From Promethearchaeati archaeon SRVP18_Atabeyarchaeia-1 (GTDB lineage: Archaea > Asgardarchaeota > Atabeyarchaeia > Atabeyarchaeales > Atabeyarchaeaceae), in the NCBI GenBank assembly GCA_037308085.1, contig CP147779.1:2624001-2688000 (forward strand): 64,000 bases of DNA, in the 5' to 3' direction. This document shows positions 2,087 through 43,838 of this stretch, one piece after another (the stretch's first letter is position 1; each line of letters begins with the position of its first letter). The position numbers and the translations under genes were made by a program. A model generated the notes under the pieces. The model was not told the DNA's origin. It saw only the letters and a list, made by a program, of their open reading frames with translations, and ran no database searches.

Positions 2087-3397
2087 CTAGTATCTTAGCG
2101 CGAAGGGATCCTCGAGTATTTCCTTTACCCTCTGGAGAAACTCGGCTGCTGGCGCTCCGTCGATAACTCTGTGGTCAACTGCCAATGCCAAGAAGGCCAT
2201 GGGTTTGACCACGATCTGCCCTTTGTCGTCCACAACCGGTTTTTTGGTTATCTTGCCTACGGCGAGTATTCCGCTTTCAGGCGGGTTTATTATAGGTATG
2301 AATACGTCTACGCCATACATCCCTAAGCTTGTGACCGTGAATGTTCCACCAGACATCTGTTCGGGCGAGAGCTTTCCTTTCTGCGCGTTGTCTATCAGCA
2401 TGCTAAGTTCCGCGCTAATCTCGGCTATCGAGAGTTTGTTGGCGTTGTGGACAACTGGAACGATTAATCCGTCCTTTGCCGCAATTGCCACGCCCACATT
2501 GATCTCATCGAATGTCTTCAGTGTGCATTCGTCCAGAAGTGTCGAGTTCACGTTGGGGAATTCCTCGAGTGCCTTCGCCGTGACCTTCACAATTATGTCG
2601 GTGTACGACAACTTCGATCCAGTTCGCTTCTCGACTTCTGACATCAGTTTCTCTCTTAGCTTGACTATTTCAGACATGTCTGTTTCCATTATGATTGTTA
2701 TGTGAGGAGCGGTTCTTGCGCTATGGCACATTCTTTTGCCAATGACCCTCCTCGTGTGAGACAGAGTTGCAACGTTTTTTACTTTTCTTGAGTCGCTCGG
2801 GATGGCCGATGCTTCCGGCGAAGGTCTCACAACTGAAACTGCAGCACCTGATCCTGAGAACGAGAGTACATTTCGAGCAACTATTCTTCCATTTGGACCT
2901 GTTCCCGTTATCATTCGCAGGTCCAGATTACCCTCCCTAGCGATTCTTCTTGCAGCAGGCGAAGCTCTAACCCGCCCTGGGACCCCCCCGACATCGTGCA
3001 AGCCGCGAGGTGTATCAAGCCCTGTCGACATGGCACCTAGCGATGGTTGAGAAGGTGTCACCATTCTGGGCGGTTGACCCAGGGTTGCTGTAGCGGGCGC
3101 AATAGCGGCCACTTCTCTTCCAAGCTGGTTGAGGTAGCTTGAGATATCCTCTTTGGGCTCGCCAATCAACGCAATCACGGTGGATACGGGGACATCAGTA
3201 TTCTCGCCGTACATAACCTTAAGCAGAAGACCTGCTGCAGGGGAATCAAGATCCACTTCCATTTTCTCGCCAAACACTTTGACAACGACTTCCCCTTTCT
3301 CAACAGCATCTTTTTCCTTCTTATACCACTTGAGTATTGTTCCCTCCTTCATCCCGAGGCTGAAGGCCGGCAGAATGAGCGGTGTGACCATATGCAT
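2087..3397 (-). CDS. 2-oxoacid dehydrogenase E2 (dihydrolipoamide acyltransferase)
   Basis: Lipoyl domain, E3-binding domain (RASPAARRIA...GTGPNGRI), catalytic domain PIINPP...DHRVIDG. Confidence 0.95.
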   Translation of the reverse strand: MHMVTPLILPAFSLGMKEGTILKWYKKEKDAVEKGEVVVKVFGEKMEVDLDSPAAGLLLKVMYGENTDVPVSTVIALIGEPKEDISSYLNQLGREVAAIAPATATLGQPPRMVTPSQPSLGAMSTGLDTPRGLHDVGGVPGRVRASPAARRIAREGNLDLRMITGTGPNGRIVARNVLSFSGSGAAVSVVRPSPEASAIPSDSRKVKNVATLSHTRRVIGKRMCHSARTAPHITIIMETDMSEIVKLREKLMSEVEKRTGSKLSYTDIIVKVTAKALEEFPNVNSTLLDECTLKTFDEINVGVAIAAKDGLIVPVVHNANKLSIAEISAELSMLIDNAQKGKLSPEQMSGGTFTVTSLGMYGVDVFIPIINPPESGILAVGKITKKPVVDDKGQIVVKPMAFLALAVDHRVIDGAPAAEFLQRVKEILEDPFALRY

Positions 3398-3557: not shown

Positions 3558-4535
3558 ATGAAGGGTGTCGATATCCAAATGGGGAACGTCGTGGTGGCGC
3601 TTGGCGATGCAAATATAGATATCTGCATGATTGGCGGCGGACCTCCTCGGCCCGGGCATGAGACCCTGGTTCAAGACATGGTGATCTCGCCCGCAGGCTC
3701 CACTGGATACTTTTCAATGGCAATTTCAAAGCTTGGAGACGAGTGCCGATTCGTAGGCCGCCTTGGAGGGGACTACTTTGGCAGATATGTTCTCGACAAG
3801 ATGAAGTCATTCGGCATAACGACAAATTACGTCAGAATTGATCCCGACGTCCCGACCGGTGTCACCGTCTCGGTCGTCTCAGAGGGAGGCGAGAGAGCGC
3901 TTGTATCTTACTTAGGTCCCACTGAGCTCTTCAACATGGCTGACATTGATGAAAGGGCGTTAATGGGGGCGAGGCATCTTCATATTGGCGGCCTTCCGCT
4001 TCTAAAGGCTTTGCAGCCCTCTGTCCCAGTTCTCTTCATGAGGGCGCGGAAAGCAGGGATGACTACCTCGCTGGATACGGGATGGGATCCAAGTGGGCGT
4101 TGGGACATCAATGAGGCCCTTCAGTGGGTGGACATCTTCCTCCCAAACGAGGAAGAGGTAGAAGCCATCACGAATGAGAAAAACATCGGCCGAGCCGCAT
4201 CGAAGCTTCTTGCTAAGGGTCCGTCCACCATTGTCATTAAGCGAGGAGCTCTCGGATGTACCGTGGCCAATCGCGAGAGAAGCGTGGACGTTCCTGCCTT
4301 CAAGGTTAATCCTGTAGACACTACTGGTGCTGGAGACGCATTCGACGCGGGATTCATATTCGGCTTCCTCAGAGGGAAGCCTTTGCTGGAATGTGCAGAA
4401 TACGGGAACGCTGCAGGCGCGCTGAAAACGCTGAAGCCAGGTTGCGATGGCCTGCCAGATCTCAGATCCGTTGAGTCACTGATAGGCGGTGGCAAGATAC
4501 CAGAGCTTGGCGCAGTTAGAACGGCAAGTCGCTAG
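3558..4535 (+). CDS. PfkB-family carbohydrate kinase
   Basis: PNEEE, VIKRGALG, VDTTGAGDAFDAGF signature. Confidence 0.95.
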   Translation: MKGVDIQMGNVVVALGDANIDICMIGGGPPRPGHETLVQDMVISPAGSTGYFSMAISKLGDECRFVGRLGGDYFGRYVLDKMKSFGITTNYVRIDPDVPTGVTVSVVSEGGERALVSYLGPTELFNMADIDERALMGARHLHIGGLPLLKALQPSVPVLFMRARKAGMTTSLDTGWDPSGRWDINEALQWVDIFLPNEEEVEAITNEKNIGRAASKLLAKGPSTIVIKRGALGCTVANRERSVDVPAFKVNPVDTTGAGDAFDAGFIFGFLRGKPLLECAEYGNAAGALKTLKPGCDGLPDLRSVESLIGGGKIPELGAVRTASR

Positions 4536-4765
4536 TTACCAGTTAGTTTCTCCTGTCAAAGAGAGTAGCGCGCTCCATTTCAGAGGAGAGAATTGGTTCC
4601 AGAAGGTGTATAGGGAGCGCGATGCCTGCGTGGCAGCAATAATAACAAGGCTTTTTAGCAACAAAGCGCACATAGACTACGGTATTCGCCTAAGGGCTAT
4701 CGCGAAGTCTGTTTCCAGGCAGTGACCTGACTTGACTTTCAGATTAGTGTAGCTAGGGGAACACT

Positions 4766-5650
4766 ATGGCTAACGAGTGTCTCGCCGATTTCGTAAAGAA
4801 ACGGCGCAGGATTCGTGAAAAGAAAAAGGGAATCGAGGAAGAGATAGCCAATCAAATAAAGGGCAGCAAAGAATTTGAAGAGCTCAAGACAGCCCTCGGG
4901 GAAGGAAGCATGGAGAAGGCGAAATCGGTCCTTGCCCACTTTGCGAACTATGCTCCAAGTGACTACGTCACTAGGATATCGGTTCAGGATGTAGTATCCA
5001 AAAAAACACTGTGCAAAGTCGGGCAGGCGGTGTCCTCCTTGAAACCGGCGATAATGGAGCTTGCCCTTCCGTGCGATGGATCCTGCATACTCAAGGTTGA
5101 GGCGTCGCCGGCCGCCGATGTCGATTCCTCCTTCAGCGTTGTCTGGCTTGGCTTGGAGGCATCTGGGAAATCCAGTCTGATTGAGAGGATAAGGCAAGAC
5201 GAGTTCATCTCTCCCGCGCCCACAATAGGACTTAACGTCGCATCCTCTGTCCTCGAAGGAATCAAGATAGTGAACTGTGACCTCTCAGGACACAAATCAT
5301 TCAGAAGCATTTGGGATTCCTTGATTGTTGGCAATCCTGACATACTGGTCTATGTAATAGATGGCTCAGAACATTCCCAGCTAGATGAAGCCCAGAAATT
5401 GCTGACAGGCTATGTTCTGAATACCGAACTCTTAAAGGGCATTCCAATGCTAGTTGTACTGAGTAAGCAGGACGTCGAGGGAGCAATTAAGGGAGAACAA
5501 ATACTGGCTAATCTGAACTTGCCTCAGTTGATATGTGATCGAGAATGGAAGCTAGTTCAAGCTAGTGCGAAGACAGGCGAAGGCATTTCAGATATGTTGG
5601 GATGGATGTTTGAACAAATCAGACTGAAAAAGGGTGTGGGCTCCGCGTGA
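4766..5650 (+). CDS. Arf-family small GTPase with ~120-aa N-terminal extension
   Basis: G1 GLEASGKS, G2 PTIGLN, G3 DLSGH followed by FRSIW, G4 SKQD, G5 SAKTGEG, terminal LGWM helix typical of Arf/Arl. Confidence 0.9.
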   Translation: MANECLADFVKKRRRIREKKKGIEEEIANQIKGSKEFEELKTALGEGSMEKAKSVLAHFANYAPSDYVTRISVQDVVSKKTLCKVGQAVSSLKPAIMELALPCDGSCILKVEASPAADVDSSFSVVWLGLEASGKSSLIERIRQDEFISPAPTIGLNVASSVLEGIKIVNCDLSGHKSFRSIWDSLIVGNPDILVYVIDGSEHSQLDEAQKLLTGYVLNTELLKGIPMLVVLSKQDVEGAIKGEQILANLNLPQLICDREWKLVQASAKTGEGISDMLGWMFEQIRLKKGVGSA

Positions 5651-6081
5651 GCGTTGGAACCTTTATCGCCAAAGCAGTGGATCCAAGCAAGAAGTTATTT
5701 ACAGTTCCTTTCAATACACTTGATGAGCCAATGGAAACAGTCAAAGAGATGGCTGCAAAGGTTTTTGAGTTTACGACGTTCATATTGTCGAAGAGGTATC
5801 CGGGTCAGGATAAACCCACTTCGAATGAGGTAACGCTAGACCTACCCAAGGGTTACTATGGATACGCGATCTCATTCAGCAGCAAGTCTGGTCAGAACCT
5901 CATTCTCGGCATAGCAGTGAAGTCAGTCTCAATGGCTCTTTTCGCCTACGCAGTTGATGCATCTAGGGCCAGGATTATCGCTGTCGTTGATAGGCTCAAG
6001 GATGATCTTCCAGTTCGAGTTGGGCTCATAAGAGATCTCCATCTTACGCTGGAAAGAGAATTCGAGATATTCAAGCTCTAG
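5647..6081 (+). CDS. Hypothetical protein, predicted longin/uDENN-like fold
   Basis: 4-nt GTGA overlap with the GTPase stop; apparent b-b-a-b-b-b-a-a pattern by eye. The CDS is well supported; the fold is inference. Confidence 0.65.
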   Translation: MSVGTFIAKAVDPSKKLFTVPFNTLDEPMETVKEMAAKVFEFTTFILSKRYPGQDKPTSNEVTLDLPKGYYGYAISFSSKSGQNLILGIAVKSVSMALFAYAVDASRARIIAVVDRLKDDLPVRVGLIRDLHLTLEREFEIFKL

Positions 6082-7627: not shown

Positions 7628-8620
7628 TCAGGTTACAACTTCTTTCACTGCTTGAATGATCTTCTTCTCGTCGGGTATGAAGCTACTTTCGAGTACGGGA
7701 CTGAATGGGACTGGCGTATCAGGTGCCGTCACCCTCTTTAGGGGGGCGTCGAGGTAGTCGAACGCCTCTTCGAGCACAATAGCCGCGATCTCGGCGCTGA
7801 TACCCGCCGTCTTGCAGTCTTCGCTCACTATGACGGCGCGTCCTGTCTTCTTAACCGACTCCCCTATTGTCTTTCTATCGAAGGGAACGAGTGTTCTTGG
7901 GTCAATGACTTCAGCGTTTATGCCCTGACCCGTCAGTTCCTTCGCAGCGTTAAGGGCCTTTGGAACCATGTAGAGCACTGGTATTATCGTTACATCTTTT
8001 CCCTCCTTCTTGACATCCGCCTTGCCGAAGGGAATCGTGTAGTCCTCATCAGGCACGGCGCCTTTGACCCCGTAGACCAGTTTATGCTCGGCGAAAAGCA
8101 CGGGGCTATTTCCTCTTATGGCAGTCTTCATGAGACCCTTCGCATCAGCTGGCGTCGATGCAACAACAACCTTGAGCCCAGCTGCATGCATGAACCATGA
8201 TAGATAAGTTGATGAGTGATGAGCCGCAACCTGTGTGCCGGCGCCGAACGGGGTCCTGATAACCACTGGAACACTGACCTGGCTGCCAAACATGTAGTGA
8301 ATCTTGGCAGCCTGGTTTACGATCTGATCAACAGCTAGCGCTATAAGGTCGCCAAACATGATTTCGACGACGGGTCTCATCCCAGTCATGGCCGCACCCA
8401 CTGCGGCACCTATGAATGTGTTTTCCGAGATTGGCGTATCCCGCACCCTTTCGTCTCCGAATTCATCAGCTAAGCCTTGAGTCACCTTGAACGCACCTTG
8501 CCAGTACTTGCCGATGTCTTCGCCCATGAGAAAAACGCGATTATCTCTCTTCATTTCCTCGCGGAGGGCTTCCCTGATTGCGTCTCGGACGGTTATCTCT
8601 CTCATTTCCTTGTTCACCAC
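7628..8620 (-). CDS. pdhB: 2-oxoacid (pyruvate/acetoin) dehydrogenase E1 beta subunit
   Basis: GEDIG, RVRDTPISE, GMRPVVEIMF, FDYLDAP. Confidence 0.95.
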   Translation of the reverse strand: MVNKEMREITVRDAIREALREEMKRDNRVFLMGEDIGKYWQGAFKVTQGLADEFGDERVRDTPISENTFIGAAVGAAMTGMRPVVEIMFGDLIALAVDQIVNQAAKIHYMFGSQVSVPVVIRTPFGAGTQVAAHHSSTYLSWFMHAAGLKVVVASTPADAKGLMKTAIRGNSPVLFAEHKLVYGVKGAVPDEDYTIPFGKADVKKEGKDVTIIPVLYMVPKALNAAKELTGQGINAEVIDPRTLVPFDRKTIGESVKKTGRAVIVSEDCKTAGISAEIAAIVLEEAFDYLDAPLKRVTAPDTPVPFSPVLESSFIPDEKKIIQAVKEVVT

Positions 8621-8626
8621 GAATTC

Positions 8627-9589
8627 TCAGTCCGCGTAGACGTCTTCGGTAACTGTGCTTGGATCTGGTTGTGGGGCATTCTTGGCAAAGTTGGCCGCTT
8701 CCTCAACCAGCGACTTCACTTCGTCCTCAATCTTCTTCAATTCATCTTCTTTCGCAATTCTTTCTTCCAGTAGCCGGTCCCGCATTCTCTTCACAGCGTC
8801 TCTCTTGATCCACTCATCAACCTCTTCCTTCGGTCTGTAGGTTGCCGCGTCGAATCTAGAGTGACCTTTTAGCCTGTAGGTCTTGCATTCAAGCAGTGTC
8901 GGGCCTTCGCCTTTCCTTGCTCGTTTGACGGCTTCTATTGCGCATCTGTAGACATCAAGAACGTCATTGCCATCAGCAACTGCCCCGGGGATACCGTATG
9001 CGCTCGCCCGATCTGCAACGTTGCTGACGACCATCGCAATGTTCTGGCGGGTTCCCATTGCGTAGAGGTTGTTCTCGCATACGAAGATAACTGGAAGTTT
9101 CCAGACTGATGCCAGGTTGAGCGCTTCGTGGAATGTGCCTTGGTTTGATGCTCCCTCCCCGAAGAATACTGCAACCACTTGATCAGTTTTTCTGAGCCTT
9201 ATCGAGAGCCCGGCCCCCACGGCCAGTGGCAGACCCGAGCCAACTACTCCGGTGGCGCCAAGGATGCCTTTGCTGAAGTCAGTTATGTGCATCGATCCGC
9301 CTTTACCCTTGCAGTACCCCGTTGCTTTTCCCATGAGTTCAGCCATCATTCGGTCGAGCTTTGCACCCTTTGCTACACAATGCCCGTGTCCTCGATGGGT
9401 GCTCTGAATCAAGTCGTCCTCCCGGAGAGCGGAGCATACGCCCACGGCGGTTGCCTCTTCGCCTAGGTATAGGTGGATTGTTCCTGGAATCAGGTTCTGC
9501 CCAAAAAGCTCGTAGACCTTCTCCTCGAAGAGGCGTGCTTCAACCAGTTTTCTATACATGTGCAGAAATGCGTCTTTTGTCAGCTTCAT
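8627..9589 (-). CDS. pdhA: 2-oxoacid (pyruvate/acetoin) dehydrogenase E1 alpha subunit
   Basis: STHRGHGH, GKGGSMH, TPP motif GEGA..24..ENN, TYRLKGHS; start uncertain (ORF open to 9685). Confidence 0.95.
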   Translation of the reverse strand: MKLTKDAFLHMYRKLVEARLFEEKVYELFGQNLIPGTIHLYLGEEATAVGVCSALREDDLIQSTHRGHGHCVAKGAKLDRMMAELMGKATGYCKGKGGSMHITDFSKGILGATGVVGSGLPLAVGAGLSIRLRKTDQVVAVFFGEGASNQGTFHEALNLASVWKLPVIFVCENNLYAMGTRQNIAMVVSNVADRASAYGIPGAVADGNDVLDVYRCAIEAVKRARKGEGPTLLECKTYRLKGHSRFDAATYRPKEEVDEWIKRDAVKRMRDRLLEERIAKEDELKKIEDEVKSLVEEAANFAKNAPQPDPSTVTEDVYAD

Positions 9590-9760
9590 GTCTGTTCCAT
9601 GAACCTTCACAGTCGCAGTACTCACAAGCATCCCCTCGATTGGCGTAAGTAGCTTTGCCGTTGAAGATTTGTTGTGAACCTTCACCGATAAAGCGTTCAG
9701 ACTTAAAAGTCCTTTGTTTGAGTTGGCAGATAATTCAACGATGGTTTTCGCATAGCCTAG

Positions 9761-35819: not shown

Positions 35820-36224
35820 TCACTTTGCGGGTTTTTTCTTAGGCGTTTCCCCCAACACCTTGAGCACTGCTTCAGCAGCTCTGTTGGTTTCGTCTATCAG
35901 GATCCCCAGCTTAGCCTCCCGTTTTGCCATCAAAGTGACAACGTTGGTATCGCCCACCCTGCCGATCACTATGTACCCGTCTTGACACTTTATGAAGACC
36001 TGCTCAAGAGTGCCCAGCTGAAGAACTTCTACGCTCATCTTGCCCAAGTTGAGCAGGGTTGCCGTTATGGCAGCAACGATTTCCTGCGGTGAGTCCCTCT
36101 GCAGGGCATTGGCAATCATTATCCCATCATAGCTGACAAGCGCCGCTCCCTCTATCTCAGCCGTCTGAGACGCGACTCCTCTCAGCACATCCTTAAGCTT
36201 ATCCAAATCGAACGAGGAACTCAT
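35820..36224 (-). CDS. Roadblock/LC7 (MglB-like) domain protein
   Basis: IEGAALVSYDGIMIA, VAAITA.LL.LG, LG.LEQVFIK..DGYIVI, AKLG. Confidence 0.9.
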   Translation of the reverse strand: MSSSFDLDKLKDVLRGVASQTAEIEGAALVSYDGIMIANALQRDSPQEIVAAITATLLNLGKMSVEVLQLGTLEQVFIKCQDGYIVIGRVGDTNVVTLMAKREAKLGILIDETNRAAEAVLKVLGETPKKKPAK

Positions 36225-42099: not shown

Positions 42100-43830
42100 G
42101 GCGTACCACACGAGTCTGGGAAGCAGGCAAGCGACTTACTTGAGGGCTGAGAAGGTTGCAGTTCACGTTCCAGGCTGAGCTGACGGCGCTATCGAGTGGC
42201 GATAGAAGCGGGCTCGATGACCTCATGGCGAGGTACTGCTCCGCGAAGAGGATAGCCTTTAACAGGTTACTGGAGGGGCGAAGCGTCAACGAGGTGACGC
42301 ACCTGCTTCTTGGGTACGGCTCCCTCCACCTGAACTGGAGGTAAGCCGAGCACTCAACCAGGGACGCCCAGGCAGCGATCGAGAGCCAGAGGAACCTGCT
42401 CCCACTGTACCTGGGCGACGTGCAGGACAGAATATGGCGCGTCGAGAAGCTGATGGAGAAGGCGAAGTCGCCGCGGAAGAGGGAAGCACTCGGCAAGCAT
42501 CTAGCGAAGCTCAATAAGAGGGGAAAGTTCTACCGGAAACATATCCACGATGGAACGGTGCCGAAGACGATCTTCGGCGGCAGGAGGAGCTTCACCGCCC
42601 TGGCGAGGGGGAGGATCAGCAGCGATGAGTGGAGGGAGGCGAGGAACAACCAAGTGTACTCGATAGGCCAGGCGAACCAGAAGGGCAACGCCAACATAAG
42701 AATCGTGAAAGAGGGAAGGGCGGTAGCGGTGCGCTTCCCTGAGAACATGCATGCAGTAAGAACCGGGAAGAGTGGAAGGGTGTACAGGGTGGTGAACGAC
42801 GTCAAGGAGTTCCAGCTCAGCGTCCCCAGCAACTTCCTGGAGTACCTCGCGCCTCTCCAAGGCGGCGGGGCATATTCGGTTCGCCTCACAAGGCGTGGGG
42901 AAAGGTACTTCGCAGGCGTGAGCTTTGAGGTTGAGCGGCCGCCGGAGCCCAGGGAGGCGCCGCTGAGGGTGTGCTCGGTGGACCAGAACCCTGGGGGATT
43001 CGCCGCCGCAATCACTTCCAGAGATGGCAACCTAGTAGCCCACAGGTTCCTTGGGGAAGACAGGCTGATATACGCCTCCCAAGGGAAGAGGGACTCGCTC
43101 GTCGGAGCGCTCGTGAGCAGGATCATGGAGTTCGCCGAGTCCTGGGACACGCAAGCATTCGCGACAGAGGACCTAGACCTTAGGGCTCACAAGATTTACG
43201 GGAGGAGGGCGAACAGGGTCGTGTACGCCTTCGTGAGGAGGAAATTCAAGGAGCACCTTCTGAGCAGGTGCTGGAAGAAGCAATACCCGGTCTCCACAGT
43301 CAACCCGGCATACACGTCGAAGCTCGGCGCCGCGAAGTACTCGGGGAGGCTTGGGCTGTCGGTCCACGAGGCAGCCGCATACGTGATTGGGAGAAGGTTC
43401 TACGGGTACGGTGAGAAGCTGGAGAAGCCACTATCCATTGCCTTAGGGAGGGGCAGGATGCCGAGGGTCAGGGTGCCCGTGCGCTACGTGTGGGCATCCC
43501 TCTACGGCTATGCTCGCCCGAGGGACCCCTACAGGGCGCCACCTGGAAGGAAAGGCAGTAGGGGGCTGAAGCCGGGCGGGCTCGGCCGAGCTGACTTTAC
43601 AGGTCACCCCGCTTGCAGAGAACGGGAACAGGGCACACCTCGGATGCGAGATGATGGGGTGCGAAAGGGCGGGGAGCCCGGTGGGAGTCCGGGGGCTACC
43701 GGCAATGGGGTTAAGCCGGCGCCTGGCAGGCCAGGTGGGAAGGTAGCTGCTACGTCACCGTGTCAAATGACACTAGATGATATGCAGAAAACCAACCCTC
43801 AACCTGATGGGCGCCCCTGGATCAGGGAGC
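42100..43830 (+). mobile_element. Non-autonomous TnpB-only IS200/IS605-type element (boundaries approximate)
   Basis: Visibly GC-richer than the flanks, inserted between coaBC and lipS1, no transposase, hairpin-rich 3' end. Confidence 0.6.
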
Positions 43831-43838
43831 AGTCATAG
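42156..43838 (+). pseudogene. tnpB: IS200/IS605-family TnpB-related RNA-guided nuclease with in-frame TAA at 42342-42344
   Basis: ORFs 42156-42344 and 42420-43838 share one frame; RuvC-I SVDQN, RuvC-II TEDL, VNPAYTS, HEAAAYVIGRR. Confidence 0.85.

Follow-up and report, generated by a model that had tools for sequence, protein, structure and literature searches.

An Arf-type GTPase gene overlapping a gene for a predicted longin-fold protein: a possible lineage-specific regulatory pair in an Atabeyarchaeia-like Asgard archaeon

The DNA analysed here (the window, 64,000 nucleotides) is C1:2624001-2688000 of the single-contig genome, 2,808,651 bp in length, of an Atabeyarchaeia-like Asgard archaeon, and it contains two overlapping genes on the plus strand: P0001, encoding an Arf-family small GTPase of 294 amino acids (aa), and P0002, encoding a stand-alone protein of 144 aa with a predicted longin fold. 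An original prediction, made from the sequence letters, had placed the two open reading frames (ORFs) at 4766-5650 and 5647-6081 with a shared GTGA, and this was confirmed. Both are real genes, as full-length homologues without frame breaks extend down to 51% identity for the GTPase and 41% for its partner. The pair, and the features of the GTPase, are as follows (positions are those of the window).

4766-5650, plus strand: Arf-family small GTPase gene P0001, 294 aa, ATG start
4796-4828, plus strand: polybasic peptide KKRRRIREKKK, residues 11-21, with R13, R14 and G22 conserved
4832-5110, plus strand: family-specific N-terminal domain (N-domain), residues 23-115, about 95 aa, as modelled by AlphaFold2
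5123-5635, plus strand: G domain, residues 120-290
5150-5173, plus strand: G1 (P-loop) GLEASGKS, residues 129-136; G129, G134, K135 and S136 invariant
5219-5236, plus strand: switch I (G2) PTIGLN, residues 152-157; T153, I154, G155 and L156 invariant
5279-5293, plus strand: G3 DLSGH, residues 172-176, with His176 (5291-5293) in place of the catalytic Gln of Arf
5462-5473, plus strand: G4 SKQD, residues 233-236; K234 invariant, D236 nearly so
5564-5572, plus strand: G5 SAK, residues 267-269, within the Arf-like SAKTGEG (267-273); S267, G271 and G273 invariant
5632-5639, plus strand: Shine-Dalgarno-like GGGTGTGG for the partner, inside the K-G-V codons of the GTPase
5647-5650, plus strand: GTGA start/stop overlap, 4 nucleotides (nt)
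5647-6081, plus strand: gene P0002 for the stand-alone protein of predicted longin fold, 144 aa, GTG start

The Pfam Arf family (PF00025) matches residues 120-285 of P0001 at 110 bits, against a cut-off of 22.3, and the N-terminal extension of about 120 aa with its KKRRRIREKKK patch is therefore real; this extension and the motifs GLEASGKS, PTIGLN, DLSGH and SKQD had all been recognised in the original prediction. Further marks of the Arf type are PTIGLN (PTxGxN), FRSIW (RxxW) and SAKTGEG (SAxxGxG). Alignment of 26 full-length homologues (51-74% identity, no notable gaps) showed His176 and the entire switch II, DxSGHKSFRSIWDSLIVG, to be invariant in 26/26; the catalytic Gln that follows DxxG in Arf is lacking in this family. 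The N-terminal region is likewise conserved among these homologues, and at G4 most of them have NKQD or NKxD, with SKQD a minority variant. A profile search of the source genome gave 25 Arf-model and 16 roadblock-model matches; P0001 is the only one of the 25 to have DxxGH. In the wider Arf family, Sar1 and SRbeta likewise have His at the position of the catalytic Gln. The AlphaFold2 model of the GTPase (pLDDT 78.9) shows an ordinary G domain whose switches are floppy.

At the N-terminus, residues 1-22 are poorly ordered, with low pLDDT; they are weakly amphipathic (hydrophobic moment 0.36-0.51), and their net charge is +3 to +6. The N-domain then sits between this peptide and the G domain, unlike the arrangement in Arf, where a short amphipathic helix lies directly ahead of the G domain. 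AlphaFold2 builds it with a pLDDT of 84-94 per 10-residue block as three helices (23-32, 36-45 and 49-60) followed by a four-stranded sheet (67-75, 81-86, 95-100 and 106-115), a topology that is not longin. A Pfam search matched no sequence family to the N-domain, and structure searches with the full-length model returned lists filled by G-domain matches. Shape matches of the Atlas model to N-terminal regions in bacterial sensor kinases were weak (TM 0.55-0.70) and were not trusted.

The top PDB sequence matches of the GTPase are Arl3 (E 1e-26, 97 bits), Arl1 and the Asgard ArfR structures 8OUK-8OUN (E 3e-22 to 1e-21), followed by Arf6, Arf1 and Arl2; Sar1 and SRbeta are absent from the 60 best. 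The SRbeta profile (PF09439, SRPRB) gives 24.4 bits, under its cut-off of 25, structural ranking of the G domain places SRbeta below Arf, Arl and Sar1, and the N-terminus is polybasic and not hydrophobic, with no SRbeta-type membrane anchor. Closest similarity to Sar1 combined with a COPII context (Sec23/24, Sec12), as would mark a Sar1 member, was likewise not found. The G domain is nearer to Arl, Arf and ArfR than to SRbeta.

Across 400 Asgard genomes, G-domain identity is 58-63% inside the three genomes of one family (f1), which is probably Atabeyarchaeia, and at most 37% outside it, the nearest outside relatives lying at 34-37%. The best paralogue in the source genome has 25% identity (62 bits), and a word-indexed G-domain search returned the same family and one protein at 32% identity. 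The outside relatives inspected are ArfR-like, 181-190 aa long, and have DxGGQ and a short N-terminal peptide resembling a helix; by sequence the GTPase family appears to be a derived offshoot of such ordinary ArfR-like GTPases. ArfR itself is defined by phylogeny, as the group that falls with eukaryotic Arf in one clade of a Ras-superfamily tree (Vargova et al.; for Asgard ArfR GTPases, bioRxiv 10.1101/2024.02.28.582541); the best PDB matches (Arl3, Arl1 and Asgard ArfR) and the ArfR-like look of the nearest genomic relatives give indirect support for membership. Because these nearest relatives bear Gln, His176 is derived and not a legacy of Sar1 or SRbeta. It is a lineage-specific substitution, coincidentally like theirs, and is no evidence of the Arf/Sar1/SRbeta hybrid that had been proposed for this protein, or of an intermediate.

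Two observations concern other Arf-like genes. The top G-domain relative outside the family (L023, G074:C229, 829-2418) is a 341-aa Arf-like protein with an N-extension of about 170 aa and DLGGQ, followed 43 nt on by a 173-aa ORF without a Pfam family; it may be an analogous GTPase-partner unit, and its proteins have no similarity to the profiles of the N-domain and the longin partner. In genus g36 (L024-L029), the ArfR-like genes nearest this family are arranged in tandem: two different Arf-like genes, each of about 181-190 aa, follow one another on the same strand.

For the partner, AlphaFold2 with a 13-sequence alignment gave a model with pLDDT 88.3 and pTM 0.83, composed of strands 2-12 and 17-23, helix 29-50, strands 59-66, 70-78 and 84-92, a kinked helix 96-118 and helix 125-138. 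This is the b-b-a-b-b-b-a-a topology that had been read from the sequence, and together with the likeness of the model to solved longin domains it identifies the predicted fold as longin. The best conserved parts of the protein are these.

5680-5694, plus strand: beta1-beta2 loop D12-P13-S14-K15-K16, from the 13-sequence alignment
5716-5730, plus strand: TLDEP motif capping helix alpha1; T24, L25 and E27 invariant, P28 nearly so
6019-6060, plus strand: C-terminal helix, residues 125-138 (...RDLHLTLERE...); D130, L131, H132, E136, R137 and E138 invariant

VIA-align was run against 48,161 PDB representatives and, in a second pass, over the top 1000 of Foldseek. The two lists agree, and place the predicted model closest to the longins of GTPase-activating protein (GAP) type in FLCN, Lst4 and C9orf72-SMCR8. 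The E-values of Foldseek are weak (best 3e-4), with the same families dominating, and among Atlas shape matches a 417-aa Promethearchaeota protein reaches TM 0.73 and a C9orf72-like cluster 0.71. Structure searches thus favour longin domains, as the original prediction had anticipated; the a-b-b-a-b-b-b topology and PF03259 match of a roadblock/LC7 (MglB-like) protein were not found in the partner.

By sequence the partner has no match in Pfam, NCBIfam, PADLOC, the PDB (single sequence and profile) or Atlas language-model features, and no paralogue in its own genome. The genome has no match to Longin (PF13774) or Folliculin (PF11704), the Longin negative being a weak one with 0 matches in control genomes too. 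Close relatives form eight clusters at 74-99% identity, and an exhaustive HMMER search of 1.84 billion representatives placed the true relatives in four 50%-identity clusters; two weak matches in giant repetitive proteins were judged spurious. Within the family, the position directly before beta2 (residue 16) is K or R in 13/13 sequences, and P13 is kept in 10 of the 11 that cover it. Conservation extends to E34, M35, A36 and K38 in alpha1, to DLPxGY in the beta3-beta4 turn and to K92. The switch regions of ARF1 contact C9orf72-SMCR8 on a face made up of the beta1-beta2 loop and alpha1 (PMC8213707), and it is to this ARF1-facing side that the conserved loop, TLDEP cap and alpha1 of the partner correspond.

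The pair had also been likened to SRbeta and the SRX longin domain of SRalpha. SRX is bound by SRbeta, and coat longins by Arf, in the GTP form, and by this analogy the partner could be an effector or adaptor of the GTP-bound GTPase with no effect on the nucleotide cycle. The His in switch II common to SRbeta, Sar1 and this GTPase would fit such a role, as would a partner that has no catalytic motif and whose strongly conserved C-terminal helix could serve third-party binding. SRX, however, is outside the 50 best matches in both VIA-align lists, an absence that does not exclude an SRX fold; the G domain falls under the SRPRB cut-off and by structure SRbeta ranks below Arf, Arl and Sar1, as described above; and no signal recognition particle (SRP) receptor or coat genes lie near the pair. 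The SRbeta-SRX analogy is therefore not upheld, and we consider an effector role quite unlikely.

Linkage of the two genes was followed in 10 paired loci, taken from three genomes (the NCBI record CP147780.1 is a relative within the same family) and from metagenome contigs. In 10/10 the partner lies directly after a 293/294-aa GTPase with gene order kept, although within only one Asgard family; two further short contigs retain, ahead of the partner, just a fragment of an upstream ORF. The junction, read in 10 locus records, is an overlap of 4 nt (ATGA or GTGA) or 1 nt (TAATG), which would couple translation of the two genes. Several loci have a GGTG core 8-15 nt before the partner start, and residue G290 of the GTPase is almost invariant. 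The partner (alignment A1) and the N-domain (A3) were found in the same 3/400 Asgard genomes, all of the f1 family, and neither was found in the remaining 397.

Both members of the pair change more rapidly than the genes around them. The window and its relatives share 84-88% identity in E1beta and 71-76% in the PfkB kinase encoded upstream (both described below), 56-63% in the G domain, and 41-51% and 41-54% in the fast-evolving N-domain and longin partner. Divergence of the longin correlates with that of the N-domain (r 0.92; 10 paired loci, 45 comparisons), and the partial r is 0.81 given the G domain, a value reached by 0/5000 permutations; the partial r of longin and G domain is 0.21. These figures hint at contact between the longin and the N-domain of the GTPase.

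These data bear on two further explanations. In the first, the genes are merely co-expressed: the longin would serve another small GTPase or a GTPase-independent role, and the pairing would be an accident of synteny within one lineage. The 25 Arf-model and 16 roadblock-model matches of the source genome fit such a reading. In Prometheoarchaeum strain MK-D1 the GTPases generally lie outside operons with longin or roadblock proteins (Tran et al., PMC10933270), so that pairs cannot be read from the genome, and this too would suit mere co-expression. Against it, the stop/start overlap persists as protein identity falls to 41%, the partner strictly co-occurs with the N-domain, and the two diverge in a correlated manner; we regard co-expression alone as improbable.

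The second explanation is that of an ancestral module or prototype, as in the original prediction, with the pair a relic of a trafficking switch of small GTPase and longin older than the eukaryotic Arf, Sar1 and SRbeta systems. The G domain does score higher against eukaryotic Arl3 (97 bits) than against paralogues from the source genome (62 bits at best), and the predicted longin fold is like that of eukaryotic GAP longins. However, the partner and N-domain are confined to 3/400 Asgard genomes of one family, the G-domain relatives nearest to it are plain ArfR-like proteins that have Gln and lack this partner, the 1.84 billion representatives hold no sequence relative of the partner outside the lineage, and both parts evolve faster than their neighbours. 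An ancestral origin is accordingly the least probable of the explanations considered, and very unlikely.

Outside the pair, the following features of the locus were identified.

2087-3397, minus strand: genes for 2-oxoacid dehydrogenase E2 and a lipoate ligase (LplA)
3558-4535, plus strand: PfkB-family sugar kinase, ribokinase-like (Pfam PfkB, 183 bits)
4638-4663, plus strand: AT-rich conserved block about 100 nt 5' of the GTPase ATG, from alignment of the spacer in 6 loci
4755-4760, plus strand: Shine-Dalgarno-like AGGGGA, 5 nt before the GTPase ATG, with the AGGG(G/A) core kept in 6 loci
7628-9685, minus strand: E1 alpha and beta genes and an Eis-like GNAT gene

The PfkB gene lies upstream of the GTPase-longin pair in L001-L005, L009 and L010, that is, in all the paired loci reaching far enough; every NCBIfam match of its product is under the equivalog cut-off. 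The spacer between PfkB and the GTPase is 200-230 nt long, and its sole well-conserved block in the 6 aligned loci, at 4638-4663, is a putative archaeal TATA/BRE promoter serving both genes of the unit. Beyond this PfkB-GTPase-longin triad, the E2/LplA and GNAT/E1 flanks are present in the window and some relatives, with the GNAT/E1 block missing at this position in some; other relatives have PEPCK with another Arf-like gene, and GGR/DUF4443. The conserved backbone is thus PfkB-GTPase-longin with the 2-oxoacid dehydrogenase genes as variable flanks, and because the outer flanks vary around it the pair is not, as had been supposed, an insertion into a metabolic operon. A defence-system or mobile-element origin of the pair was rejected, with 0 PADLOC matches and conserved chromosomal synteny. 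The stretch is present in DNA runs of wetland and freshwater-sediment metagenomes only.

Elsewhere in the window, a Roadblock/LC7-family gene at about 35946-36167 on the minus strand (PF03259, 49 bits) has no adjoining GTPase gene as far as checked. A GC-rich island of 1.5 kb (42300-43800; 60-64% GC against a background of about 49-50%) has no Rfam match, and a ribosomal RNA reading of it was rejected. It contains a 472-aa ORF (42420-43838, plus strand) without a Pfam family, for which the sole lead is a weak Cas12f1-like TNB match (E 0.22) around an NPAYTSK motif; the island may be a TnpB-like mobile element.

The explanation that we put forward, with about even confidence, is that P0001 and P0002 are a translationally coupled two-gene unit encoding a lineage-specific cognate GTPase-longin regulatory pair. 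In the first gene, an Arf-type G domain would have gained a polybasic peptide, the private N-domain of about 95 aa and a His for the catalytic Gln; the second would supply a single-domain longin-fold protein made in step with the GTPase. The longin would probably act as a dimer, as do other longin/roadblock platforms, docking on the GTPase by way of its N-domain and switch face; the polybasic N-terminus may keep the complex on anionic membranes. From the combined evidence we infer that the two proteins bind and that the longin sets the nucleotide state of the GTPase.

As to how it might do so, we tentatively favour a finger-less GAP or co-GAP role in which the longin would position His176 in the manner of MglB. 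This preference is based on the partner fold, which is closest to GAP longins; on the change of Gln to His, which should make hydrolysis partner-dependent, as in Sar1; and on MglB, a roadblock-superfamily dimer that acts as a GAP without an Arg finger. More generally, His at the catalytic position, as in Sar1, usually accompanies hydrolysis that depends on a partner. A close second is a role as guanine nucleotide exchange factor (GEF), in which the longin would stabilise the nucleotide-free state of the GTPase instead of stimulating hydrolysis, much as the longin platforms of TRAPP, Mon1-Ccz1 and DENN act as GEFs for Rabs. Taken by itself, a GEF role is unlikely. The fuller picture of a minimal archaeal Arf-GTPase/longin system, with the longin docked through a private N-domain and His-dependent switching without an Arg finger, we hold to be rather unlikely.

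Several points weigh against a regulatory pair with GAP activity. The predicted model lies closer to GAP-type than to GEF-type longins by a margin of no more than 2-3 Z units. Operon partners need not bind one another, and binding of this pair is itself a deduction, which suits mere co-expression as well. The mirror-tree signal may reflect two fast regions that both track divergence time, and the loci compared are not independent. The Arg finger of DENN-type longin GAPs is reported to lie between beta4 and beta5 (bioRxiv 10.64898/2026.01.05.697756); here the beta4-beta5 loop (residues 79-83) is variable (SKSGQ, GPSGE, GPKRV), with Arg in 2/13 sequences. In longin GAPs the beta1-beta2 loop, which faces the GTPase, also ends in a GP motif (PMC12290439), and in the partner there is no GP directly before beta2: the loop is DPSKK, with consensus [DG]-P-x-[GK]-[KR] and the Pro four residues ahead. 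Co-folding of the GTPase (26-row alignment) and partner (13-row) with GTP and Mg gave ipSAE values of 0.21 and 0.27 against a mark of 0.32, and counts neither way.

Asgard longins similar to FLCN/SMCR8 (PMC12290439) and fusions of longin or roadblock domains with GTPases in Asgard archaea (PMC10933270, PMC11914678) have already been described; a literature search found no paper describing this GTPase-longin pair. What is new is the presence in one operon of a sequence-orphan longin family and an Arf subfamily with a private N-domain and a Gln-to-His change. Small GTPases, like longin or roadblock proteins, number in the dozens in Asgard genomes, with the matching of regulator to GTPase largely obscure. 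Novak Vanclova et al. (PMC12290439) raise the question of whether the FLCN/SMCR8-like longins of Asgard archaea have ArfR or Rag GTPases as clients. If the fuller picture given above holds, the pair would give an FLCN/C9orf72-like longin its first operon-encoded cognate client outside eukaryotes, and would model how longin GAPs worked before DENN domains and Arg fingers were acquired. For eukaryogenesis the pair has limited value, as it is derived, belongs to one Asgard lineage and is without the catalytic marks of eukaryotic longin GAPs. As a small, conserved pair (294 and 144 aa) with putatively coupled genes, it is directly expressible and assayable.

Compared with the Asgard ArfR/AArf GTPases (HodArfR1, GerdArfR1; PDB 8OUK-8OUN), the GTPase described here has His where they have the catalytic Gln, and a folded domain of about 95 aa with a polybasic peptide where they have a short amphipathic helix ahead of the G domain; its gene is apparently coupled to a longin gene, and there is a gap in identity between 58-63% within the family and at most 37% outside it. 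Sar1 and SRbeta (with the SRX of SRalpha), from the wider Arf family, are alike in the His after DxxG in switch II.

The longin GAP complexes FLCN-FNIP2/Lst7-Lst4, C9orf72-SMCR8 and GATOR1 Nprl2-Nprl3, and the Asgard FLCN/SMCR8-type longins (PMC12290439), differ from the partner, which is a 144-aa single domain with no DENN. The partner has neither the conserved beta4-beta5 Arg nor the GP before beta2 and no detectable sequence similarity to these proteins; and whereas the complexes comprise two different longin(-DENN) subunits, here there is one longin gene with no second nearby. In MglA-MglB and other prokaryotic GTPase/roadblock operons, a GTPase gene likewise adjoins a roadblock/longin-superfamily gene. 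The source genome has two such MglA/MglB-like clusters, each with its genes on the same strand: at C1:734683-736571 a small GTPase gene is flanked by three Roadblock/LC7 genes, and at C1:1677921-1679222 by two. The Asgard longin/roadblock-GTPase fusions (PMC10933270; PMC11914678) similarly join a longin or roadblock domain to an Arf-like or Rag-like G domain; these are single proteins, whereas at this locus the two parts are encoded by separate genes that the overlap would couple in translation.

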